64,000 nt of DNA from a virus (taxonomy: Duplodnaviria; Heunggongvirae; Uroviricota; Caudoviricetes): the IMG/VR virus record IMGVR_UViG_3300011008_000020; one strand, 5' to 3'. Made by a program: the position numbers and the translations under genes. The notes under the pieces were generated by a model. The model searched no databases. It had not been told where the DNA came from and was given only the letters and a program-made list of their open reading frames with translations. This document shows, in pieces, positions 2,595-63,707 of the stretch (positions are counted from its first letter, which is position 1; each line of letters starts with the position of its first letter).

Positions 2595-2968
2595 TACAGT
2601 CCCACTTCCGTTCCTTCCCGCTTCACCCAAACGTAGATGTGGTGGTTGCGGATGTTCCTCGGTAATTCGGCGATGAATTCGAGGTTGGTTCTCTTGTCGA
2701 GAACCTTGTCGTTCACGCGGATGTCGGTGCCAATCGGCAACGTCAGCTTGATGCGCTCCTCGTAGGCATGCTCCGGGAGATTCTGCACCAATGTGTTCAC
2801 GGTGCCGCCAGAGCTGCCCTGTGCGAAGTGGCAATCCACGTCCGCCACGTCAGGGGTGTCCGGGTAGTTGAATGACGGGCTTCCCGGCAGGCCGTAGCCC
2901 GGAGAATCCTCGTCCCCGATGATGTGATACAGGTCGCACTTATGGTCGAAGAAATCTTCCAACGCCAT
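2594..2968 (-). CDS. head closure / head-tail adaptor protein
   Basis: 124 aa ORF between the gp6-like connector and the gp10-like gene; synteny. Confidence 0.55.
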   Translation of the reverse strand: MALEDFFDHKCDLYHIIGDEDSPGYGLPGSPSFNYPDTPDVADVDCHFAQGSSGGTVNTLVQNLPEHAYEERIKLTLPIGTDIRVNDKVLDKRTNLEFIAELPRNIRNHHIYVWVKREGTEVGL

Positions 2969-2981
2969 GTCGCAGCCCTCC

Positions 2982-3374
2982 TTACAGCTTCCGCAGCCGC
3001 ATGAACACGGTTCCGTTCGCTTGGGAGATCACGTATGGGTCGAGCAGCGAACCCAGTCCCATTTCCGTGAGCGAGACTTCCGAATCATTGGCCGTATAGC
3101 TGTAGTCGTCGAACGTCTCGCTGGTGTACTTGCGCGTGATCAGGTACGAGGAATGGGCGAAGCGCTCCGCCAGCAGTATCACCGCCGTCCTCACGCTCTT
3201 GGGAATCTCCTCGTACTCGTCGCCGGAGAAGTCGTTGTGGGTGTAGGCGATGACCATCTGCTCCGCTCGCACGATGTCGATGTCCAGCTTGTCGTCGTCA
3301 CGGGCTTTCACGTCCTCGAACGAGGAGTAGTCCCGCACGTCATCCGGGTAAACCCACGGTCTTTTCACGGCCAT
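2982..3374 (-). CDS. gp6-like head-tail connector protein
   Basis: 130 aa, immediately downstream of the capsid module; acidic N-terminus typical of gp6-like connectors. Confidence 0.55.
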   Translation of the reverse strand: MAVKRPWVYPDDVRDYSSFEDVKARDDDKLDIDIVRAEQMVIAYTHNDFSGDEYEEIPKSVRTAVILLAERFAHSSYLITRKYTSETFDDYSYTANDSEVSLTEMGLGSLLDPYVISQANGTVFMRLRKL

Positions 3375-3386
3375 GCGGAACCCTCC

Positions 3387-3788
3387 TTACTCGGCTTCTG
3401 CCTTGCGGATGGCGTTCACGATGTCCGGCTTCTTGGTCAGCTTGCCGAGATCAATGCCAACGGTCTCCGCGTAGGCTTTCAGCTCCGCGACCGTCATGCT
3501 TTCCAGCTCGTCCTCGTCGTCAGCGGGAGCGGCGCTCTCGGCGCTGGGCTTCTGGGTGACGGGCTTCTCCTGCGGGGCTTCCCGCGTCTGCGCAGGGGCC
3601 TTGGTGGCCTCGTCGGCGGGCATCTTGCCGTCTACGCGGGCAAAGTAGCCGCTGTTGATGCAAAACTGCGCGATGGCCTCGTCCTCGACCTCGACAAAGG
3701 GGTTGCGCTGGGTGGCGCTGACATAGCCGTTGCTGTGGCTCAAGCCGTGCGTCAGCTTCAAGGTAATCAATCTATCGCCTCCTTCCAA
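3387..3788 (-). CDS. hypothetical head-associated protein with C-terminal Rho_N/SAP-like motif
   Basis: 133 aa; C-terminal MTVAELKAYAETVGIDLGKL resembles Rho_N/HeH DNA-binding motif. Confidence 0.45.
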   Translation of the reverse strand: MEGGDRLITLKLTHGLSHSNGYVSATQRNPFVEVEDEAIAQFCINSGYFARVDGKMPADEATKAPAQTREAPQEKPVTQKPSAESAAPADDEDELESMTVAELKAYAETVGIDLGKLTKKPDIVNAIRKAEAE

Positions 3789-3833
3789 AACGAAGGAAGC
3801 CGCCTCGTGATGAAGCGGCTTCCGGGCAGGTCA

Positions 3834-4763
3834 TCAGGCCAGACCGTAGGCAATCGCGGTGGCGTCGAACTCCTCGACAATCGGGTCGAAGTCGAAGTGG
3901 ACGACGTAGAAGCGCTTGTCCTGCATGACGGCGGTCATGCCCTCGGTGGTCTTGCGGATGATGACGTCGTAGGTGTCCACGCAGATCAGGTTCTGGGGAT
4001 TGACCAGCAGAATCGCATCGGCGGGGAAGTTGGGGACGGTGACGATGGGGTGACCGGCAGGATTGTTGATCATGCCGTCAGTGACAGCGCCACCAGAGGT
4101 GCGGGCCTGCTCCACGAGGAACTTCTCCCACTTGGTCTTGCGGGACGGGGCCATCAGCCAGCGCAGGCTGTTGTCCGCGTACTTGTCGGGCAGCGCCAGC
4201 AGCATGTCGTAGAACACGCCATCGGTCATCGCGCCCGCGTTGACGGAGCCACGGTTCAGGGTGTGACCGGAAGCCTTGATCTGCTTAATCCAGCCATCGT
4301 TGACCTTCAGGAAGTCGTAGTCGGAGTCGCTGGCGTCGGTGGCGCTGTCAGCGTTGAGCATCAGGTCTTCACGGTCGATGCCGAGCTGGGTCGTCATCAG
4401 GTCGGTGACGATGCTCTCGTAGTTCTGACCCTCGATGTTCTCACGCAGGGCCTCCTCGGTGATTTCCCACGGCAGACGGACGGGAGTGGTGCTGTAGGTC
4501 AGCTTCCCGTGCTTCGGGGTGACGCGGTAGCCGTCGTCCACGTTCTCGGTCTTGGCCCGCAGGATGCGACGGTCGATGCCGATCTTGTCGATCTCACCGG
4601 CCTTGGCCCGGCGCTGGACGTGACGAATCAGGTTGCCCAGAGCGGTCTTCTCGAAGGTCTGCTGAATGAACTGCTGCGCCTGTTCCGGGTTCAACAGGCC
4701 ACCCGCAGCGAGGGTCGCGGTGGTGGTAGTACCAGCCTTATTGATCAGTTCGGTGTTGCTCAC
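3834..4763 (-). CDS. major capsid protein (HK97 fold)
   Basis: 309 aa, follows protease/scaffold gene; sequence character of HK97-family MCPs. Confidence 0.8.
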   Translation of the reverse strand: MSNTELINKAGTTTTATLAAGGLLNPEQAQQFIQQTFEKTALGNLIRHVQRRAKAGEIDKIGIDRRILRAKTENVDDGYRVTPKHGKLTYSTTPVRLPWEITEEALRENIEGQNYESIVTDLMTTQLGIDREDLMLNADSATDASDSDYDFLKVNDGWIKQIKASGHTLNRGSVNAGAMTDGVFYDMLLALPDKYADNSLRWLMAPSRKTKWEKFLVEQARTSGGAVTDGMINNPAGHPIVTVPNFPADAILLVNPQNLICVDTYDVIIRKTTEGMTAVMQDKRFYVVHFDFDPIVEEFDATAIAYGLA

Positions 4764-4799
4764 GGTATTGTCCCTCCATTCTATATGTTGTGCTTGGCC

Positions 4800-6205
4800 T
4801 TACAGGATGCCATGCAGGTAGTGCGTGGTCTCGGCCTTCTCGACGTTGCCGGTGGAGCCGTCGTCCATGCCGGTCGCAAGGCCGCGCTGCTTGAAAGCCT
4901 TGGCGATGCCATCCTCGATCATCTTCTGAACAGCGTCGGCGTTCAGGGTCTCGGCGGCGGGGGCCTCCTCGGCCTGCTTCTCGACGGGCTTGGTAGCCTT
5001 CTCGATGGCGTCGGCGATCATCTTCTTGACGGTCTCCTCAGTCATCGTCTCGGCCTGCTTCTCGACCTGCTCCTCGGCAGGCTGATCGGCGGGCTTCATG
5101 GCCTTCTGGATGCTCTCGTCGATCATCTTCTGGATGTCTTCCTTGTTCACTTCGGTTTCCTCCTCATCTTCGTTCTTGTCGTCGGTTTCGGCGTCGTCCG
5201 GCTCGTCCTGATCGTCGTCAGGCTCGTCATCGAATTCCTTGGCGAACTCGATAAGCTGCTGGGCGATGCCATTCAGCTTCTCCTTGTTGGCCTTGGACAT
5301 CTTGCGTCCGGCCTTCTCCACGGCGTCCTCGCCACCGTCAGCAGCATCGGTCGGGTGGGCGTCGTGAAGTTCCTTGGTGATGGTCGCGCCATTGTCGTTG
5401 AGAATCTCGACGATGATCTCGTCGAACTCCTCAAGGGCTTCGCGCACCTTCGCCTCGTCGGTTTCGTAGGCGGGTTCATCCGTCCAGTAGTCCCAACGAC
5501 GCAGCACGGTTTCCAGCGTGTTGAACGCAATCCAGAACTTCTCGGAGCGCACACGCTTCTCGTACTTGTCGCGCATCTCGCCCTTGACGATGGCGCTCTC
5601 GACGCCGAGCGCCTTCGCCAACTTTTCCAGCAGGTTCAGCTTGTCCGGCACGTCGCCGGTCGCAGCAGGCGCGGATTCGGGCGCGGTGGCCTTCTCAAGA
5701 TCCACGTCCTCCGTGGCGTACTTGCCGACGCCGCCCATCGACAGGCCGGTGATCTGGCCCTTCTCGATGGCCTCCCAGACGTCATCGTTGGCGACCTCGA
5801 CGGTCATCAGCCACGTGCCTTTCTGGATGGTCTCGCCCTCGATGACCTGCTCGGCCTTCGTGACGGAACTCTCGACGACGGTCAGGCCGTCCGCCTCCTC
5901 GAAGGAGTGCTGGATGTCGATCTTGTCGCCGTTCTTCATAAACCAGTGAGCGGCCTTTTCGATCTCGCTCTCGGTCATATAGTTGTCGTGGGCGTCCGCG
6001 ACGTTGGGTTCGTAGACGACGCCGGTGACGTAGTGGCTCTCGTTGTCCACCTTGATGATGCGACCGTTGGTCTGGAATCCCTGACCGCCGTCTTCCTCCT
6101 GCTTGGTCAGCAGAAACGACTTCTTGTTCGCAGCCTTGTCCACCAGCGACACGAACTTGATCTTGGCGTCCGTGATCTCAATGGACTTCTTCACATTGCT
6201 CATTT
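4800..6205 (-). CDS. prohead protease (XkdF-like) fused to scaffold-like C-terminal repeats
   Basis: RBS AAAGGAGGTGA then MSNVKKSIEITDAKIKFVSLVDKAANKK (XkdF/prohead protease-like motif). Acidic C-terminus with 3 repeats xQKMIxDxIxKAxKP. Confidence 0.7.
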
Positions 6206-6346
6206 GTGTCTCACCTCCTTTGCTGCATAGTGGTTGATGGTGAATTCTCGCACCATGCCTGCCTCCTTTCACGCAGTCGTCGCCGCGTCAAAGGACGCAG
6301 CAGAGGATTATAAAAAGCACCCACGCGGGAGTGCGGGTGCAATTTA

Positions 6347-6496
6347 TCATGTGGTCAATCTCGGAATGAACGCCATGAGGAAGATGATCAGCTCGTACAT
6401 GAACCGCCCGACGACCACCCCAAGCACAATGACGGCGAGGACGAACAGGCCGAGCGCGATGTCCGAAAGGACTTCGAGGGCTTTCGTGCGTTTCAT
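6347..6496 (-). CDS. small membrane protein (49 aa; absent from ORF track)
   Basis: GAAAGGAG RBS then ATG; hydrophobic core LGLFVLAVIVLGVVVG. Confidence 0.4.
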   Translation of the reverse strand: MKRTKALEVLSDIALGLFVLAVIVLGVVVGRFMYELIIFLMAFIPRLTT

Positions 6497-6705
6497 GTGG
6501 CGCTCCTTTCTTTTTCATTCCGTGTAAAAAAGGAAAGTTCGTGGCGCGGAAACGTCTCGAACTCTCCGTTTTTGCATTTTTAATCAATAATCCGCGACGA
6601 TGATGGTCGGCGTTACAGATTATTGATTTTGTTGTAGAACAGGTGACATCGCCTCGTGTCACCTGTTCTACAACGAGGGCTGCAGGTTGTAACCTGTTAC
6701 CTCAA

Positions 6706-8025
6706 TCATTTCTTGTCCTTGATGATGTCCTTCGCCAGCCTACGCATCTTGGCGGTGATGCAGCGATGCTCGCTCCATCCCGTGAAGTTGCCGTTGGCGT
6801 CGTACAGCGCCCGGTTGTAATGAGCGCCGCCGTTGCCGTAGGGGTAGGCCTTCGGCTGGCCGTGGTCGCTGTTGTCAAGCCGCATGATGACCTTGCCCTC
6901 GTCGTCGTAGTAGTACCGGGTGACGGAGCCGTCCGCGCCCGTCTGCTCCACCACAGCGTTCGCCTTGTCGGTCAGGCCGGGCGTCTGCGTCACCTTGCTG
7001 GTGGGCTTGAAGACGCCGCCGTTGCCGTTCGGCAGCAGGGTGTTGATGGGCTTGCGGTAGGTCTCGTTGCCGCTTCGGGCGCGGTTCTGCTCGTCCAGTT
7101 CTTCGGCCCATTTGCGATCATCGTCCGCGACGGCCTCCGCTTGGAGACGCTTGCGCTCGGCCAGCGAAAGGCCGAGGACTTCCTCGGAGACGACCGGGCT
7201 TGTGATGCAGTGGCAGTTGATTCGCTCGCCGGGCGGCAGGTTGGTGTCGCGTGGGTACATGGGCTTGTAGCTGCCGCCGTCCGCGCCTCGCAGGTCGAAG
7301 GGTTCCTCCTTCGGGACGACCTCGCCGTCCATGTCCACATGGTTCGGGCGGGGCTTGTTCCTGCGGCTTCCAGTGTGCCGCCATTCCTTGCCCTCGACGG
7401 ACGGGGATTGCATCATGGATTCCTGATTGGCGACGGAGTGGGCCGTCAGCATTTCGGTGAGCGCCGTCTGGCGTGCCCTTGCATAGCTGGTGCGGATGCC
7501 GTCGTCCATCAGTTCCCGCGTCACGTCCGCGACGCTCTTGCCCTTGCGCATGGCGTCCTCAAGGATGTTCTGGATTCCGTCGTGGGAGGTCAGCTTCATA
7601 ATCTGGCCGAGCTGCGGCGACCACTGGGAAATCCAATCGACGGTGCGCTGGCGCAGCGCCGTCACCACGAGGCCCTTGTCCACGGTCTTGATGTACTTGG
7701 TCGCAAGGCGGGGGATGACGGCGGAGAGGCCATTCTGAACGATGTCCTGAATGTCGTCGGCAAGGGCCGACGCTTCGCGGTACACGCCCCACGTGTTCTC
7801 GAAGAACTCGTCCACGCTGTCAGCCTGCTCAATCTGCTCGGCGACGATCTCCGTGTCCATGTGCATCGCGTCCGCGAGCTGCTCCTCAAGGTCTTCCGCG
7901 TCGCTGACGGTCTCCTTGGGTTCGACATATCCGGCGTCGTCCAGCAGGTCGGCCATGTCCTCGTCGTCCTTGGCGATGTAGGCGTCGATGGCCTTGATCA
8001 GCGCCTCGCAGGTTTCACACCTCAT
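6706..8025 (-). CDS. MuF-like minor head / head morphogenesis protein with ~150 aa C-terminal extension
   Basis: 439 aa. MuF/SPP1 gp7-like core with the RINCHCI (NCRC-type) motif. 4-bp ATGA overlap with portal gene. Extra C-terminal domain RYYYDDEGKVI...GNGGAHYNRALYD. Confidence 0.65.
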   Translation of the reverse strand: MRCETCEALIKAIDAYIAKDDEDMADLLDDAGYVEPKETVSDAEDLEEQLADAMHMDTEIVAEQIEQADSVDEFFENTWGVYREASALADDIQDIVQNGLSAVIPRLATKYIKTVDKGLVVTALRQRTVDWISQWSPQLGQIMKLTSHDGIQNILEDAMRKGKSVADVTRELMDDGIRTSYARARQTALTEMLTAHSVANQESMMQSPSVEGKEWRHTGSRRNKPRPNHVDMDGEVVPKEEPFDLRGADGGSYKPMYPRDTNLPPGERINCHCITSPVVSEEVLGLSLAERKRLQAEAVADDDRKWAEELDEQNRARSGNETYRKPINTLLPNGNGGVFKPTSKVTQTPGLTDKANAVVEQTGADGSVTRYYYDDEGKVIMRLDNSDHGQPKAYPYGNGGAHYNRALYDANGNFTGWSEHRCITAKMRRLAKDIIKDKK

Positions 8026-12159: not shown

Positions 12160-12197
12160 TCGGCAGAAAAATAGAATCCTGCGCCGGGGCAGGATTC
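12160..12197 (-). terminator. rho-independent terminator upstream of terS
   Basis: 9-bp stem GAATCCTGC/GCAGGATTC followed on the minus strand by TATTTTTCTG. Confidence 0.6.
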
Positions 12198-12239
12198 TTT
12201 CATTCTGCGGTGGAATATTGTTAAGAAATTGCGCTGTAA

Positions 12240-17963: not shown

Positions 17964-18482
17964 TCACATCCCTTCGAGGAACAATATTCGACTTCCAGTG
18001 AACGGAACCCTGCCTATGATCTCGGCCTCGCTGCACTTGATGTACTTCCTGCCGTACCGCTCCTTCATTTCCCGCCAGACTTCCCACGGGATGACGCAAA
18101 AGCTGTCGAGGGAGAAGCTGACGAGGATGAAGCACTTGGCTCCGAGTTTGAAGTGCTGGTCGAATCGCTTGGCCTGCTGTTCCGTGACGGCGCTCTGCTC
18201 GATCTTCCCGGCGTCGGTGAACTTCGATTCAAAGATGACCGCCTGACCTCCGGCGAGCGTTCCCTTGAAATCCGGCTGGGCCTTCTTCTCGAACACGCAG
18301 ATGAAGTGCGCCCCGTCGTTCAGCTTCCGCACGACGCGCATGGGTTCCGGCGTCTTCTCGATCTGGGCCTTGCCTTCCTCCTCATACCAGCGGCAGCTCG
18401 TCTCGATGATCTGCTCAAGGAGCCGTCCGCGCTCCTTGTTCATGCGACCTGTGACCTGATGCCTGTAACGGTCTCCCGGCAT
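17964..18482 (-). CDS. RecU-like Holliday junction resolvase
   Basis: DFKGTLAGGQAVIFESKF...ILVSF pattern resembles the RecU family. Confidence 0.55.
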   Translation of the reverse strand: MPGDRYRHQVTGRMNKERGRLLEQIIETSCRWYEEEGKAQIEKTPEPMRVVRKLNDGAHFICVFEKKAQPDFKGTLAGGQAVIFESKFTDAGKIEQSAVTEQQAKRFDQHFKLGAKCFILVSFSLDSFCVIPWEVWREMKERYGRKYIKCSEAEIIGRVPFTGSRILFLEGM

Positions 18483-19776
18483 ATCGCTCCCAAAGTCCTT
18501 TCTTCCGAATCCAGTCGATCTTGCCGCGCACCGCCTGAGTGGAGCGCTTCATCGTCTTGGCACAGTAATCGTGGCCGTAACCCGCCTCGATCATCTGCAC
18601 GAGGTTGTGCATGTCGTCCTCGCTCCACTTCACTGTCGCGCTCTTGAGCGGACGAGGAAGGGCGAGGTCATAAATCCGCCTACGGATGCTGCTGGATGTC
18701 CTTTGGAAGGCGTGTTGCAAGTCCTCGTGGGTGTAGCACCCGGCCTCGCACATGGCGGTGAGCAGCGCGTCCTCCTGCACCGTCCACCGGCACTTCTTGG
18801 GCGTGGACATGAGCCTGTTCCGCTGGTCGATCTTCCGCTTCTCCTTGCCCCATGCCGGTTCCATGCCGAGCGCGTTCTCCTCGAAGCGAGAGAAGTCAAG
18901 GATGTCTTGGTTCCTCTCGGCCCACGTCCAGAACTCCTCGATGTCCACCTGTTTCCACATGCACCGTTGCACTCTGGTTTTGTGGACAGGAAGGCCACGT
19001 TCTTCCCATCGACGCATTGAGTAGGTGAGGCTCCCGCTATCGTCGAAACCGACGACTATCCGAGCGACTTGCAGGAGAGATACAAGTTCGCTGCCGTTTC
19101 GGTATGGGCCGAGCTTCAATCGCATTACACGTGTCTTGATCGCGCTTTCGGTTCTACCGAGAGCTTTCGCTATCCTTGGGATGCCGCCATAGCAGCCCCA
19201 TAGTTCGCGCAGTTGGTTTTCATCGTCCGGCGTCCAGTTATTGCTGTAGCTGCCCTTGTGGCACTGCTTGATGATCTTGCTGACAGCGCCTTGGGTGACG
19301 CCGAATTGCTGTGCAATATTTTTCTGAGAGCAGCCTTCGGCGTACAGGTCATAGACCTCGCGGCGCTGCTCGTTCGTCAGCTTGGCGCGGCCATTCTTCT
19401 CGCCAATGGTTGCGGTGTTTGCCAAAATCTTATCCTCCCAGTTTTCGTGCGGCGTCCCGTATGCCAGATTGCAGGGCCGGTTGTCCCGGCTGTCTCCGTT
19501 CAGGTGACGCACGTGTAGGTGGCTGCGGTTCTTCGGCTTCCCGTGGAAGCCCTCGCAGATCAGCGCGTGGACGTTCTGTGTGGTCATGCTTCCGTCCCGG
19601 CGCATCACGTGGACTGTGGCGTAGTCGCCGCAGGTGTATTGCCGGACGGGCTGCAGCGTCACATATCGAACGCCGTCCACGATCTCGCTGTCGATCACGC
19701 TGTAGATGTTCCCGTCACTCCCGGCGAACAGTCCGGCGTAATCGTACAACTCCGTGTACTCGATTGCTCCGCTCAT
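18415..19776 (-). CDS. HNH homing endonuclease with multiple HTH domains
   Basis: N-terminal HNH motif (HVRHLNGDSRDNRPCNLAYGT); repeated HTH-like segments. Confidence 0.75.
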   Translation of the reverse strand: MSGAIEYTELYDYAGLFAGSDGNIYSVIDSEIVDGVRYVTLQPVRQYTCGDYATVHVMRRDGSMTTQNVHALICEGFHGKPKNRSHLHVRHLNGDSRDNRPCNLAYGTPHENWEDKILANTATIGEKNGRAKLTNEQRREVYDLYAEGCSQKNIAQQFGVTQGAVSKIIKQCHKGSYSNNWTPDDENQLRELWGCYGGIPRIAKALGRTESAIKTRVMRLKLGPYRNGSELVSLLQVARIVVGFDDSGSLTYSMRRWEERGLPVHKTRVQRCMWKQVDIEEFWTWAERNQDILDFSRFEENALGMEPAWGKEKRKIDQRNRLMSTPKKCRWTVQEDALLTAMCEAGCYTHEDLQHAFQRTSSSIRRRIYDLALPRPLKSATVKWSEDDMHNLVQMIEAGYGHDYCAKTMKRSTQAVRGKIDWIRKKGLWERYAGRPLQASGHRSHEQGARTAP

Positions 19777-20703: not shown

Positions 20704-21874
20704 ATTACTCCGGCAATTAAACATTGCCGCCGTGGTCATTAGAATCATCAAGTACTCGATAGGGTGCGAGAGTCGGGTGACCAAAGTATGATTGGACGTG
20801 CTTCGGGTTTTGTGACAGTGATGTCATAAAAGCATTGGCGTTCTGCTGGAGATCGGCCTCTGTCTTGGCTTGCCGTTGGGATCCAATCGTCTGTTTCAGG
20901 TCATTGTTCAGGTATTCGTCTGGATTGTACTCCGGAGAATAGGAAGGGAGGAAAAACAGCCGGATTCGATCCTTGTGTTCCTCTATCCAATCCTCTACAA
21001 GTTTCCCGTGGTGGACCTTGAGGTTGTCCAGAATGATGTAGACTTTACGAGGAATATCCTTGAGCAGCCGCTCCAGAAACTCGATCAACTTCTGCTGATT
21101 CATGCTTTCTTGACTGAACATGAAGTGCAGTTTTCCCTGATTGCTGATGGCGCTGATCATGTTGATGTGCATCTTCCTGGCTTTCGTCTTCAGCACCGGG
21201 GTACGGCCTTTCGGCGCATAGCCTCTGGCATAGTTGGCCACATTCTGTACGGCGGTCTCATCGCCCCAGAAAATCTCTGCATCTTCCTTCTTTGCCTCGC
21301 TGTGGATGGCTGGATACTCTTCCTTCAACCATCGCTGTACCGCTTCCGGCTTTTGCTCAATCGCCTGCTTCGCAGGCCGTTGCACTGTAAATCCCCACCG
21401 CTGGAGATACATCCCCACTGTGCGAATGGGCATATCAATCCCGTACTTGTCCTTGATCAGCTGGCGAACAGCATCCCGCGTCCACAGCGCACACTTCATC
21501 TTCAGTTGATCAGGATTCTTGTCGGTGATGATCCGAACAACTTCCTTCTCCTGATTTGGTGTCAGTGTACGTTTCTCGCCGGCTTTTCTGCCGCGCTTCT
21601 TTGGCTTTAGTGCTGCCATGCCTCCACTCTTGTACTTCCTGATCGTTTCCCGGACCGTTCTCTCGCTGAAGTCAGTTACTTCTATAATCTCCTCCACTGA
21701 CTTCTGTTTCTTGAAGAGTGCGATAACGGTTTTCCGCATCTGATACAGAACTTCCGGCGTGGATTTCCGATAATCAGTTTTCTCTTCGATTCCCATGGTA
21801 TTATTATACCATGTCTGAACCTAACTTGCTATATCCTGTCGGCAATATTTTGTTGCTGAGTTAATAAAGTAAAG
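20704..21874 (-). mobile_element. IS630-family insertion sequence
   Basis: Imperfect terminal inverted repeats (20706-20743 vs 21836-21872; CTCCGGCAATTAAACATTGCCGCCGTGG vs rc CTCAGCAACAAAATATTGCCGACAGGA) flank a transposase ORF; about 1.17 kb. Confidence 0.7.
20717..21796 (-). CDS. IS630-family (Tc1/mariner-like DDE) transposase
   Basis: 359 aa; N-terminal HTH; DDE_3-like core (...ILDNLKVHHG...FLPSYSPEYNPDE). Confidence 0.85.
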   Translation of the reverse strand: MGIEEKTDYRKSTPEVLYQMRKTVIALFKKQKSVEEIIEVTDFSERTVRETIRKYKSGGMAALKPKKRGRKAGEKRTLTPNQEKEVVRIITDKNPDQLKMKCALWTRDAVRQLIKDKYGIDMPIRTVGMYLQRWGFTVQRPAKQAIEQKPEAVQRWLKEEYPAIHSEAKKEDAEIFWGDETAVQNVANYARGYAPKGRTPVLKTKARKMHINMISAISNQGKLHFMFSQESMNQQKLIEFLERLLKDIPRKVYIILDNLKVHHGKLVEDWIEEHKDRIRLFFLPSYSPEYNPDEYLNNDLKQTIGSQRQAKTEADLQQNANAFMTSLSQNPKHVQSYFGHPTLAPYRVLDDSNDHGGNV

Positions 21875-60529: not shown

Positions 60530-60955
60530 ATGTCAATTTTCGGTGAGAGGCTGTATGAGGCCCGCAGGCGGCAGCGGATTACTCAAGGCGATCTGGCAGA
60601 TCGCGCAGGCGTCACCCGGTCGGCCATCGGTGGGTATGAGAAGATGGGAAAGGATGCCAGCTATGAAGTATTGGTGAAGATCGCGCAGGCACTCGGCGTG
60701 ACGACTGACTACCTGCTCGGCATGGACGACAATGCTGGCTGGCATAAGCGCACCGGCGTCGCCGAGAAGTTCTACGATCTTGAGCTTTACTATGACCGTG
60801 CGCCAGACGAGCAGAAAGCCACCATAGACAGCCTGCTCGTGGAGGTGGACAAGTTGCTCGCCTTCTTCCTCGCGTCGCCGGACACGGCGCGGCTGGGCCA
60901 TCTGCGTGACCTCCTCGCGGACGCCCGCAGGCTCATGGGTGATGGCAATGAGTGA
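60530..60955 (+). CDS. XRE-family HTH regulator with C-terminal domain
   Basis: RBS GGAAGGAG then MSIFGERLYEARRRQRITQGDLADRAGVTRSAIGGYE. Confidence 0.65.
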   Translation: MSIFGERLYEARRRQRITQGDLADRAGVTRSAIGGYEKMGKDASYEVLVKIAQALGVTTDYLLGMDDNAGWHKRTGVAEKFYDLELYYDRAPDEQKATIDSLLVEVDKLLAFFLASPDTARLGHLRDLLADARRLMGDGNE

Positions 60956-62138
60956 GAACAAGCCGTTCGTCGTCTACGGCGACTATGGGCGCGACAGCGA
61001 GGGCAAGCGCATCCGAAAGAAGTTCACCGGCGTGGACGAGGTGGAGGCCCGGTTGAAGAAGCGGGAGTATGAGAAGGAACGCGCCATTGGCCTGCACAAG
61101 TACGCCGACACCATGACGGTGCGCCAGTGGACGGACATCTGGATGAACGCCTACCGCTCCGAGATCAAGGGCACGAACAAGGTCTCCTATGACACATACG
61201 TCGGGCGGCTGAACGCAGAGATCGGCCACATGAAGATCAAGGATGTGCAGAACATCCACCTGTACCGATGCTTGTTGACCATGAAAGGAATGTCGAAGTC
61301 GTCCCTCACAAAGTACCGCATGGTGATTCAGCAGGTATTCCGAAAGGCCCGGCAGAACAAGGTGCTCCCGGACGACCCAAGTGAAGACCTCGAACTGCCG
61401 AACGGCACCAGCGGGACGCACCGGGCGCTTGAGAAGTGGGAGATCGACCTGATCTTCGAGAATTGGCAGGTCTATAACAGCGGCCTATGGGTGATGATTA
61501 TGCTGCTGGCCGGGCTTCGGCGCGGCGAGCTGGTGGCCCTCGACTGGGACTACGTGGACATGAAGGAGCGCAACATCGTCGTCGAGCGTGCCGCCGAGAT
61601 CGTGACGAATCAGGCCGTCATCAAGGATTCCGCCAAGACAGAGGCCGGGACGAGGGCGCTGCCGATCTGCGACAAGCTGTTCGATGCGCTGTCCACCGTG
61701 CCGGAGGCGGAGCGCAAGGGGCCGGTGTGCCACAGCAAGGGCGGCGTGCGCCTGACGCAATCCTCATATTCGTGGGGGATGCGCACCTTCAACCAAGCGA
61801 TGGAGCGGATTCTGAACGGCGAGCCGCCAATCCAGCAGGGACGCCGGAAGGATTGCGAGGACAAGAAGAAGGGCCAGAAGGAAAAGGAGGCGCAGGAGCG
61901 CAAGAGGTTTTCCATCCGTGGACACGATCTGCGGTTCACCTACGCGACCGCGCTCTACGACGCGGGGGTCGATGTCAAATCTGCCATGTACTACCTCGGC
62001 CACAGCGACATCCGCATGACAATGAGCCTATACACTCAGCTTTCAAAGGAACGCGAGAACCTGTCCCGCGCACAGGCGATCACCTTCCTCGACAACTGGC
62101 TGAAACCCAAGAACGACGACGAAAAAGACGAAGATTGA
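60948..62138 (+). CDS. int: tyrosine-type site-specific integrase
   Basis: Catalytic residues R (LRRGELVALDW), H-x-x-R (HDLRFTYA) and Y (SLYTQL); overlaps the upstream gene's stop. Confidence 0.9.
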   Translation: MSENKPFVVYGDYGRDSEGKRIRKKFTGVDEVEARLKKREYEKERAIGLHKYADTMTVRQWTDIWMNAYRSEIKGTNKVSYDTYVGRLNAEIGHMKIKDVQNIHLYRCLLTMKGMSKSSLTKYRMVIQQVFRKARQNKVLPDDPSEDLELPNGTSGTHRALEKWEIDLIFENWQVYNSGLWVMIMLLAGLRRGELVALDWDYVDMKERNIVVERAAEIVTNQAVIKDSAKTEAGTRALPICDKLFDALSTVPEAERKGPVCHSKGGVRLTQSSYSWGMRTFNQAMERILNGEPPIQQGRRKDCEDKKKGQKEKEAQERKRFSIRGHDLRFTYATALYDAGVDVKSAMYYLGHSDIRMTMSLYTQLSKERENLSRAQAITFLDNWLKPKNDDEKDED

Positions 62139-62142
62139 CCTT

Positions 62143-62169
62143 CCCGCCTGCATGGCGGGAATTTTTTTG
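62143..62169 (+). terminator. rho-independent terminator after int
   Basis: CCCGCC-tgcat-GGCGGG then AATTTTTTTG. Confidence 0.7.
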
Positions 62170-62202
62170 TGTAAAAATCCACTATTGGTGTCAATTTTCA
62201 TC

Positions 62203-62231
62203 TTGACAATGTTGCCATTAGTTGCTATAAT
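62203..62231 (+). promoter_or_regulatory. consensus sigma-A promoter TTGACA-17-TATAAT (plus-strand family member)
   Basis: CTTGACAATGTTGCCATTAGTTGCTATAATGG; TGGTGTCAAT motif at 62187-62196. Confidence 0.65.
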
Positions 62232-62264
62232 GGATTTGAAAATGACGCGAAGGGAGACAATCAC

Positions 62265-62777
62265 ATGAGCGCAGGCGACACGCGGCAGCAGATTCGAGCC
62301 ATGACGCTTGTCGCCCGGCAAGTACTCGGAGACGGCTTCGGCTATTACCTCACCCAGCGGCCACCCGCGCCCGGAGCGCATCCGAATGACGCGCACGCCG
62401 TCGTCTCGTTGGACGCGAAGATGTGGCATGACGGAATCTGTCAGGAGATTTGGGGCTGGGTTTGCTACCGGCGACAGCTCACCAACGCGGAGGTCGAAGA
62501 ATACGAGCTGCTCCCGGACGAGGACAACCCCGTGAGGTATCAACAATATGGCATCGTGCTGTATGAGCGTGTGAAGGACGCGGACGGGCGCTCAAGGATG
62601 CGGAAGACGCCGGTGACGGAAGGCGGCAGCAGAGGCGAGCGGTTCATCACCAGCTACAAGGGCAAGGCCTTCGCATTGATCGACTTCCTGAACAAGAAGG
62701 CGGGGGCGAAGCTGAATCTAAAGGTCGTCAAGCTGCCGCAGAATGGAACAACGGACGCAGCACCGACACGACAATGA
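62265..62777 (+). CDS. hypothetical protein (moron between int and the element boundary)
   Basis: RBS GAAGGGAGAC then MSAGDTRQQ; 170 aa. Confidence 0.55.
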   Translation: MSAGDTRQQIRAMTLVARQVLGDGFGYYLTQRPPAPGAHPNDAHAVVSLDAKMWHDGICQEIWGWVCYRRQLTNAEVEEYELLPDEDNPVRYQQYGIVLYERVKDADGRSRMRKTPVTEGGSRGERFITSYKGKAFALIDFLNKKAGAKLNLKVVKLPQNGTTDAAPTRQ

Positions 62778-63053
62778 TCGGAGGGCGAGTGAAGCGGCTC
62801 TGCAGTAGCTGCGACGCGGAGCGGTTCAAATCCGACACGTCCGGGAAGGTGCCGAGGGTGTTGCAGTCACCCATCGGCGCAGCCAACGAGGTTACGGGGA
62901 CTTTGAGGCTTAAACTGTAAGACAACCCGGTGGCAGCTCGGAAAGACGGCAGCGGGGCTTCACCGTGTGGATTGCCGGGAAGCACCTGCATCGGCTGGCC
63001 GGGTTGCCGCCCGGCTGGCCCTCCAAGAGTGCTGAGAGGAGGTGGAGGCGGTG

Positions 63054-63320
63054 ATGCTGTTCGGTGACAAGAATACATCGGAGCAGCCCATTGATGAACT
63101 GTGGAGCAGAGCCATTGAACTGCTCCGTGACGGGATTCAAACTCTCAAGGAACTGTTTGAGAGGTTGTATGAAGTATTCAAGGAGGCATGCCGTGTGTGT
63201 GCTCCGCTCCGCCCGCGTTCGTACCATAACGCGGTATGCGGTATCATGCGCACCATCTTCCTTTTCAAGCTACACCCTGCCGCGACCATGCGGTTTCACG
63301 TGGCGGCGACCGGCGATTAG
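63054..63320 (+). CDS. small hypothetical protein
   Basis: RBS AGAGGAGGTGG then MLFGDKNTSEQ. Confidence 0.4.
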   Translation: MLFGDKNTSEQPIDELWSRAIELLRDGIQTLKELFERLYEVFKEACRVCAPLRPRSYHNAVCGIMRTIFLFKLHPAATMRFHVAATGD

Positions 63321-63388
63321 ATGCGGCCCACATATTGAGCTCTGCCGAATGACCGGGCTGGACGATGGGTTATCCAGCCCGGAGTTAT

Positions 63389-63465
63389 GGGAAGGTACGC
63401 TAAGAGAACGCGGAGATCGGGGAGACACGATCTGATTGTTGGTTCAAACCCAACCCTTCTCACCA
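63389..63465 (+). other. tRNA-like element 1 (7-bp acceptor, T-arm, ACCA; aberrant 8-nt anticodon loop)
   Basis: GGGAAGG...GTTGG-TTCAAAC-CCAAC-CCTTCTC-A-CCA; anticodon stem AGATCG/CGATCT with loop GGGAGACA. Confidence 0.35.
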
Positions 63466-63625
63466 GTAGTGCGCGTCACTGTCGCGGCCTGATCACCCGC
63501 GCAGAAGCCTCCCTGTATCGGTAATGACGTTATGGAGCAGGGGTTCACCGTGCGAGTACGAGTGACCAACCGCAAGGCCCTTTTAGCACGGTTTGCGGGA
63601 CAGCCCGGAGAGACGGGCGATTTTC

Positions 63626-63707
63626 GGGAATGTAGCGTAATTTGGTAACGCACACAGGCGGTGCACCTAACCTGCGGTTGTCGGTTCGAATCCGAACATT
63701 CCCACCA
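63626..63707 (+). other. tRNA-like element 2 (7-bp acceptor, D-arm, T-arm GGTTCGAATCC, ACCA; no canonical anticodon arm)
   Basis: GGGAATG/CATTCCC acceptor; D-stem GCGT/ACGC; variable-arm-like AACC-tgc-GGTT. Confidence 0.35.

Follow-up and report, generated by a model that had tools for sequence, protein, structure and literature searches.

Organization of the head-gene locus

The window, by which we mean the whole 64,000-nucleotide stretch of phage DNA analysed here, contains a head module whose genes were identified by Pfam and PHROG searches and all lie on the minus strand. The genes and features considered in this work are the following.

12107-11241, minus: small terminase (terS)
11244-9832, minus: large terminase (terL)
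9818-8022, minus: portal
6706-8025, minus: MuF-like head morphogenesis gene, 439 aa (PF04233, 7e-16; PHROG 2468, 3e-69)
6605-6707, minus: window copy of the long-hairpin element (covariance-model match)
6582-6628, minus: second hairpin, arms AATCAATAATC and GATTATTGATT, 18 pairs possible with G·U
6526-6567, minus: fourth hairpin, GGAGAGTTCG...CGAACTTTCC, then TTTTTT
6347-6496, minus: 49-aa hydrophobic membrane ORF (MKRTKALEVLSDIALGLFVLAVIVLGVVVGRFMYELIIFLMAFIPRLTT) with a good AGGAG ribosome-binding site
6312-6340, minus: intrinsic terminator, GCACCCGC...GCGTGGGTGC (6340-6317), then TTTTTATAAT
ending at 4800, minus: XkdF-type protease
4763-3834, minus: major capsid protein

The MuF stop codon (6708-6706) is directly upstream of the hairpin element. 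The MuF protein ends in a YD/RHS-repeat extension of ~120 aa (6706-7065), with a TIGR01643 match in the last 119 aa, and its homologues carry varied toxin-type domains at their C termini (PF15644, PF15542, PF06414 and PF18451, in L072, L084, P0016, P0025, P0028, P0076 and P0079). Both the extension and the varied C termini match the MuF polymorphic-toxin family (PMC5576092). A small immunity-like ORF sometimes follows a toxin-type homologue (78 aa in L084). The 49-aa ORF of the window was considered for the same role and rejected, as it is missing from several loci with the same MuF C terminus. It found no family match in Pfam, PHROGs or NCBIfam; an alignment of seven homologues shows 29-55% identity, with D12, F39, L40, F43 and I44 invariant. 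At the same site L072 has an unrelated 51-aa membrane ORF.

The terminator at 6340-6317 has a counterpart in every relative examined, including loci that lack the element, and divides the terS-to-MuF unit from the protease and capsid unit. On the minus strand, terminator-like sites are confined to three places, upstream of terS, at 6340 and downstream of the capsid gene, which places the element at the 3' end of the terS-to-MuF unit. The fourth hairpin, just upstream of the small-ORF ribosome-binding site, is possibly terminator-like in the window only; at this site the relatives have a hairpin with a conserved GAAACGTTTC core and no T-run. Just upstream of terS, a 10-bp GC-containing palindrome (AGAATCCTGCGCC GGGGCAGGATTCT, 12163-12208) is flanked by A- and T-runs, and the scan calls it terminator-like on both strands.

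Within the highly conserved protease leader (6200-6316, minus) are a hairpin, GCTGCGTCC..GACGCGGC, and an upstream ORF of 18 codons (6256-6200, MVREFTINHYAAKEVRHK). The stop codon of this ORF overlaps the likely protease start (ATGA, 6203-6200), which makes ATG 6203 the probable start of the protease in place of GTG 6272 of the ORF list. Antisense to the protease and capsid genes runs a stop-free ORF of 1087 aa (2967-6230, plus) with no Pfam or PHROG match, and comparably long antisense ORFs are seen in the relatives L004 (1597-4695, 1032 aa) and L001 (5489-8404, 971 aa). It is probably a codon-usage artefact, yet strikingly long for ~60% GC.

The phage is temperate: a tyrosine integrase gene (60906-62138) lies beside a tRNA gene. 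Its neighbours are a protein with a DarA_C anti-restriction-like domain (62265-62777) and the tRNA (63626-63704), and the AT and GC skews switch sign near 59 kb; the stretch 60906-63704 is likely the prophage end with the attachment region. An IS630-like DDE transposase gene (20717-21796, minus; PF13358 and HTH domains), situated inside the phage region in a local GC dip of 0.48 against ~0.57, probably marks an insertion sequence. The host is probably a clostridial Firmicute.

Palindromes downstream of the MuF gene

All three palindromes listed in a preliminary description of this DNA are present in the sequence at the positions given there, and they are adjacent rather than nested, as they had been called.

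6631-6648 / 6657-6674: 18-bp perfect inverted repeat, GTTGTAGAACAGGTGACA / TGTCACCTGTTCTACAAC, spacer 8 nt
6582-6592 / 6618-6628: 11-bp perfect pair, AATCAATAATC / GATTATTGATT
6683-6696: small local palindrome, CAGGTTGTAACCTG (CAGGTTACAACCTG on the minus strand)

Their description as lying between the MuF-like gene and the protease is accurate for the MuF side only; the protease is not the direct neighbour, because the 49-aa ORF, the fourth hairpin and the intrinsic terminator intervene. The judgement that they are too strong for chance is borne out by shuffling and by folding. The 18-bp repeat is the longest perfect inverted repeat of the 64-kb window, and its 18-mer matches the window at these two arms only; shuffled windows gave a mean of 0.01 matches, and none of 100 gave two. 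The 212-nt intergenic region folds with -80.5 kcal/mol as the minus strand and -88.4 kcal/mol as the plus strand, against about -46 and -52 for the respective shuffles (z of about -8.7 on each strand). Both strands fold as four hairpins in a row. The minus-strand fold leaves the small-ORF ribosome-binding site unpaired, and the RNA stem of the 18-bp repeat is predicted in it to comprise 18 bp plus 2 bp with one bulge. The 11-bp pair can be extended to 18 nt with 83% complementarity; of its three mismatches, two become G·U pairs when the minus strand is read. The remark that the 18-bp stem has no U-tract is also correct, a T-run being absent after the stem on both strands.

A conserved element at the same junction of related phages

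Using DNA patterns and MuF homologues, we retrieved ~20 distinct related contigs, mainly from rumen and gut metagenomes, whose MuF proteins are 63-84% identical to that of the window. All of them show the same order: the MuF gene, a variable stretch, a terminator of the same kind, TTTTTATAWTCC and the conserved protease leader. A homologous element of identical length, with zero indels, occupies the same junction in ~nine distinct lineages from rumen and gut metagenomes, while the intergenic sequence around it is not alignable among the relatives. The parts of the junction occur in several combinations.

Long hairpin, second hairpin and small ORF: window, L001, L004, L009, L056
Both hairpins, ORF absent: L058, L069
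Long hairpin, divergent second part and ORF: L061, L063, L065
Second hairpin alone, with or without the ORF, directly after the MuF stop: L059, L066, L072, L080, L082
Neither hairpin nor ORF: L083, L084

The small ORF is thus found in most relatives and is missing from L058, L066, L069, L080, L083 and L084. Since L083 and L084 share the gene order and lack the element, their sequences indicate that the element is accessory and dispensable. Conservation in related phages, which the preliminary description had proposed as a check, was found for an imperfect homologue of the palindromes; the perfect 18-bp repeat itself is absent from all relatives found, two of which, with the same gene order, have no element at all. 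Against the refuting condition named in that description, the outcome is therefore mixed.

Three of the relatives have an extra terminator-like hairpin between MuF, or a 66-aa ORF in L069, and the element (L009, 8830-8925, minus; L069, ~4090-4165; L058, ~3825-3870). After this hairpin, L009 and L069 share a conserved stretch with TTGAAC, 17 nt and TATATC, which may be a weak promoter, although it fails the criteria of our scan.

None of the cultured phages is a close relative. Megablast and blastn searches of the region against 50,697 phage records gave zero matches, tblastn with MuF came no closer than distantly related phages of Clostridium, Bacillus and Lactococcus, whose identity was 50% or below, and the MuF search of reference genomes also gave zero matches. 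The exact full palindrome is absent from IMG/VR; the 15-mer CGCGGATTATTGATT gave 46 matches, nearly all by chance. Two single-arm matches, both attributable to chance, were found in 185,579 reference genomes. When both arm variants of the second hairpin were searched, AT-rich bidirectional terminators with no relation to it (L076, L077 and L081) also came up. No further copies of the element exist in the 64-kb window or in 66 other loci (0.5 Mb).

Architecture of the hairpin element

In the relatives the element is an imperfect hairpin of ~84 nt with three helices in one register, and a second, AU-stemmed hairpin usually follows or overlaps it. The full element is 125 nt long in every relative that carries it. 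The alignment is ungapped, and the window position of its column n is 6708 - n.

P1: columns 14-20 with 91-97, GGTKACA : TGTMACC
P2: columns 34-39 with 72-77, TTGTA : TACAA
P3: columns 45-51 with 60-66, GGTGACA-N8-TGTMACC
P1 3' strand in the window: fourth 7-mer copy, TGTAACG, 6611-6617, minus, columns 91-97

RNAalifold found P1, P2 and P3 unprompted. When folded individually, with the downstream arm of the second hairpin left out, all eight relatives tested formed the long hairpin, with z between -2.3 and -6.2 in seven of them and -0.3 in L058. A covariance model built from ten homologues matched the window on the minus strand (6707-6605) with 82.6 bits and on the plus strand with 62.7 bits; the model includes the window copy, and the match is therefore partly by construction.

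The 18-bp hairpin of the window (6631-6674, 8-nt loop) corresponds to P2 and P3 fused, the internal loop between them being closed. In the relatives that loop keeps P2 and P3 apart, and in most of them the central pair of P3 does not match (48:63, mismatched in 6 of 10 sequences); in place of the 18-bp stem they have only a 7-bp core, often mismatched. The P1 5' strand of the relatives is represented in the window by a GGTTACA copy (6694-6688) that lies inside the small palindrome and can pair with 6617-6612. The small palindrome as such (6683-6696) is specific to the window and is not seen in the relatives.

The arms of the second hairpin are near-invariant and AU-rich, whereas its loop of 23-25 nt is fully diverged in sequence; the distance between the arms is 23 nt in 12 of 13 loci. 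In the relatives its left arm and the 3' strand of P2 share columns (74-82 against 72-77) and the centre of its loop is taken up by the fourth 7-mer, which makes the long and the second hairpin mutually exclusive; the energy balance between the two folds lies there anywhere between -14 and +21 kcal/mol. A 9-nt shift of the second hairpin allows all hairpins of the window to form together, and the fourth 7-mer is there also part of the extended stem of the second hairpin.

Evidence for RNA structure and for the folding strand

In register 76% of cells pair, and sliding the partner by 1-3 columns lowers this share to 31-43%. The covariation score was 0.141, and a score at least as high was reached in 7 of 500 shuffles. 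Compensatory pairs are seen at columns 14:97, 17:94, 34:77, 27:84 and 28:83, and column pair 34:77 runs through A-U, G·U and G-C with zero mismatches. These figures come from ten sequences that represent perhaps six independent lineages, with mostly invariant stems and about five co-varying pairs, and the covariation is accordingly suggestive rather than decisive evidence for an RNA structure. It should also be kept in mind that template switching during replication can by itself mimic compensation without any selection on RNA.

A second line of evidence concerns the strand. A G·U pair on the sense strand is an A·C mismatch on the opposite strand. The ratio of G·U to A·C within the helices is 12 to 2, whereas non-helical in-register cells show 10 to 32 (Fisher test, 6.5e-5, on cells that are not independent of one another). 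This excess of G·U points to the minus-strand transcript, that is the mRNA, as the folding molecule. Taken as comparative sequence evidence, these observations favour an RNA-level structure on the coding-sense strand. The preliminary description had offered three options, an RNase III processing site, a protein-binding site within the head operon and an attenuator; the first is compatible with a structure formed by the sense-strand RNA, which the comparison favours. The interpretation given there is thus supported in part, and its gene context was incomplete.

Identities considered and rejected

Several familiar explanations could be set aside. Rfam 15 gave only matches far under the gathering scores in 6200-6800 (best E-values 0.45 to 8), and its sole match in the entire window is the tRNA at 63626-63704. 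The 18-bp hairpin is not an intrinsic terminator: in place of a U-tract, AAAATC comes next when the minus strand is read and GAGGGC when the plus strand is read, and the scan does not flag it. In most loci the second hairpin is also not a terminator, given its AU-rich arms, its loop of 23-25 nt and a GC-rich stem that is not conserved. No sigma-70-type promoter was found in 6100-6900 or in L001, and those in L009 and L069 are at chance level; the scans covered this promoter type. Boxes picked by eye (TTGTAG, GTGACA, TTGTCA, TACAAT, AATAAT and TTGATT) all have wrong spacings. The phage encodes a 453-aa protein (18415-19776, minus) with an HNH endonuclease domain and sigma-70 region 4, judged from these domains a possible phage transcription factor, and its late promoters may therefore deviate from the sigma-70 consensus used in the scans.

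A MITE- or REP-like repetitive palindrome was rejected, since dispersed copies are absent and the element is single-copy at one junction. A stimulator of readthrough or frameshifting at the MuF stop is contradicted by the distance from stop to hairpin, which ranges from overlapping to ~100 nt, and by a terminator in between in some loci. A pac or cos site would hardly be dispensable and distant from terS, and an integrase attachment site is not expected inside the head operon, far from the integrase at ~61 kb. The GTTGTAG...CTACAAC ends superficially resemble a solitary CRISPR-like repeat, but no array or repeated copy was found anywhere. Finally, the constant length suggested a hidden coding segment; conservation is block-wise, however, and is explained by the palindromic register.

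A candidate processing site and its alternatives

We tentatively propose that the palindromes of the window are an unusually perfect copy of a conserved, dispensable RNA element of the sense strand that serves mRNA processing or stability in the manner of an RNase III site, a reading that we hold to be quite possible while still short of probable. The element would be part of the head-module transcript, after the MuF stop and before the small membrane ORF and the terminator that ends the unit. Its double-stranded stem would act as an RNase III-type site that separates, or differentially stabilizes, the terS-portal-MuF message and the message of the small ORF. Cleavage would leave a protective hairpin remnant on the MuF side and would free a small-ORF message ending at the terminator 300 nt downstream. 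The sequences show the structure, its conservation, the strand that folds and the single copy, and they speak against a terminator and a sigma-70 promoter; the nuclease and the effect on expression are inferred.

An idealized E. coli RNase III substrate has 22 bp, which is two A-helical turns, and the polycistronic message of phage T7 is processed at interrupted hairpins of a similar kind (PMC3867540). The predicted stem of the window, 18 + 2 bp, is close to this ideal and thus compatible with the RNase III reading; with regard to the 20-22 bp of near-continuous double-stranded RNA expected of such a substrate, it qualifies, whereas the helix of the relatives is coaxial but interrupted. Indeed, the 7-bp stems of the relatives would on their own be poor RNase III substrates, which argues against this reading. 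Whatever the role of the element may be, it is not needed for head-gene expression, because L083 and L084 have the same gene order without it.

The first alternative, which we consider unlikely but not negligible, is that the conserved object is double-stranded DNA. A phage or host protein would bind the four GGTKACA copies together with AATCAATAATCC / GGATTATTGATT, possibly as the operator of a promoter for the moron-like ORF; two of the four copies are direct and two inverted, around one shared centre of symmetry. Such a site would account for motifs that are near-invariant while the spacers between them have diverged in sequence and remain exact in length (125 nt; 23 nt), and the fixed 23-nt arm distance across a diverged loop, in particular, is more easily understood through recognition of double-stranded DNA than through RNA. 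Copies 1 and 2, as well as copies 3 and 4, are 31 nt apart, or about three helical turns, and the central mismatch of P3 tolerated in most relatives means that pairing is not strictly kept. The phage is temperate, and an accessory ORF with its own terminator has a moron-like layout. However, the inner half-sites are 15 bp apart from centre to centre and would face opposite sides of the helix, and further operators would be anticipated close to the gene of the repressor itself. GGTGACA occurs 9 times in the window against ~8 expected, and the 12-13-nt motifs are not found at other plausible sites there with up to two mismatches, the 12-mers having no other match at all at that threshold. Protein-binding sites would not be expected to show an excess of G·U, or compensation between copies 1 and 4. 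No sigma-70-type promoter accompanies the putative operator in the window or in L001, nor one above chance level in L009 and L069, and L058, L069 and L080 keep the element although they lack an ORF that it could regulate.

A conformational switch or an attenuator formed by the 5' leader RNA of the small ORF, in which mutually exclusive long and second hairpins would control its transcription or translation, seems to us distinctly unlikely. In the relatives the two folds indeed cannot coexist, owing to the overlap of the second hairpin's left arm with P2, and in L001 they are nearly equal in energy (-38.9 versus -40.8 kcal/mol). Elsewhere the preference varies widely: L009 and L056 favour the long hairpin by 8-21 kcal/mol, L004, L058 and L069 favour the alternative by 8-14 kcal/mol, and in the window the 9-nt shift removes the overlap, so that the hairpins form together. 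The controlled gene would be a short, hydrophobic and conserved ORF, and a hairpin with a T6 run does lie just before its ribosome-binding site in the window; that site, on the other hand, stays single-stranded in the fold predicted, a conserved GC-rich stem beside a U-tract is missing from the second hairpin, which is not a terminator in most loci, and each hairpin module is also found without the ORF. An antisense promoter was not found in the scan.

Loop closure and its possible origin in template switching

The right arm of the 18-bp stem reads TGTTCTACAAC in the window, versus TGAAATACAAC or AGAAATACAAT in the relatives. The change from AAA to TTC, a cluster of 3 nt, has turned the right arm into the exact complement of the unchanged left arm, and by closing the internal loop between P2 and P3 it produced the perfect 18-bp stem. 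In L056, L061, L063 and L065 the same loop is closed through the left arm, by a change from AAC to TTT or TTC. From these alignments the same internal loop appears to have been closed twice independently, from opposite arms. Clustered multi-base changes that complement the other arm are a signature of template switching during replication (PMC8794818, PMC7202029). The locus offers a clean natural example in which multi-base changes shut one RNA-hairpin loop on two occasions, each time through a different arm, as would be predicted if RNA stems are built and repaired by template switching during replication.

Could template switching be all there is? It is improbable, in our judgement, that the palindromes have no function of their own and are by-products of such events in a quasi-palindromic, weakly constrained spacer between transcription units. 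Template switching does explain why the perfect 18-bp stem is unique to the window and why the clustered multi-base differences carry the published signature by complementing the other arm exactly (PMC8794818, PMC7202029), and a spacer of this kind fits an element that is dispensable as a whole. It does not explain why register, length and motifs are kept across MuF identities of 63-84% when the flanking intergenic sequence cannot be aligned, or the G·U bias of the helices, which indicates selection on one strand; the double closure of the same loop is likewise unexpected of a mere by-product.

A very doubtful possibility is that the long and the second hairpin together are the gene of an autonomous small non-coding RNA acting in trans, for instance as a regulator or decoy, with the ORF as an optional passenger. 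In L069, L058 and L080 the terminator follows the element after ~30-45 nt with no ORF between, and the extra terminator-like hairpin in L009, L058 and L069 would seem to insulate the element from upstream transcription. A convincing promoter was not found; TTGAAC-17-TATATC of L009 and L069 fails the scan, and in the window, L001, L004 and L056 the element begins 5-12 nt after the MuF stop, where there is no room for a promoter. In addition, nothing elsewhere in the window is complementary to the conserved segments of it that are single-stranded. The boldest version, an exchangeable clostridial-phage module encoding an autonomous trans-acting RNA (for example an anti-defence decoy or an RNA cofactor of head assembly with its gene next to those for portal and MuF) that is transcribed by itself in phages like L069, where the element stands between two terminators with no ORF, has in our estimate only the slimmest chance of being correct; if it were, the perfect stem of the window would be an adaptive strengthening of that RNA.

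If, instead, the reading at the level of the sense-strand RNA is true, the element represents an undescribed structured RNA motif at the boundary where the genes for packaging, portal and MuF give way to those for protease and capsid in a group of uncultured Firmicutes phages of the rumen and gut. This boundary is a likely point for setting the very unequal amounts of minor and major head proteins.

Comparison with known systems

The changes in the stem resemble the correction of quasipalindromes by template switching in that a clustered change has made the arms exact complements, here twice. That comparison concerns a mutational mechanism rather than a function, and the inversion of the spacer is not seen here.

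In size and form the element is similar to REP/BIME, ERIC, Correia, RUP and MITE-like hairpins, which are imperfect palindromes of 80-130 nt that are intergenic, transcribed, variably present and able to fold in mRNA. Unlike these, it is single-copy and confined to one genomic junction.

The leaders of type I toxin mRNAs offer a putative likeness only: in a prophage, a hydrophobic ORF of ~50 aa comes after ~190 nt of strongly structured leader. Neither an antisense nor a divergent RNA gene was identified here, however, and the leader modules also occur without the ORF.

The comparison with morons concerns the small ORF. Like a moron, it is an accessory gene that, with its own terminator, sits between conserved head genes of a temperate phage and is variably present. 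It differs in that sigma-70-type scans detected no promoter of its own, and the hairpin modules are independent of the ORF.

RNase III hairpins are well known from the polycistronic mRNAs of phages, such as the early and late signals of T7, sib of lambda and those of SP82 in Bacillus. The element has no sequence relationship to them, and the upper stems of its relatives are much weaker; it is dispensable and stands beside a terminator, not between co-expressed essential cistrons. The likeness lies in an imperfect, non-coding intercistronic hairpin with internal loops and no U-tract in a phage operon, and the stem of the window, at ~20 bp, is near two helical turns (PMC3867540). As an intercistronic hairpin of a phage operon, the element is of a familiar kind, and it leaves the known picture of phage gene regulation unchanged.
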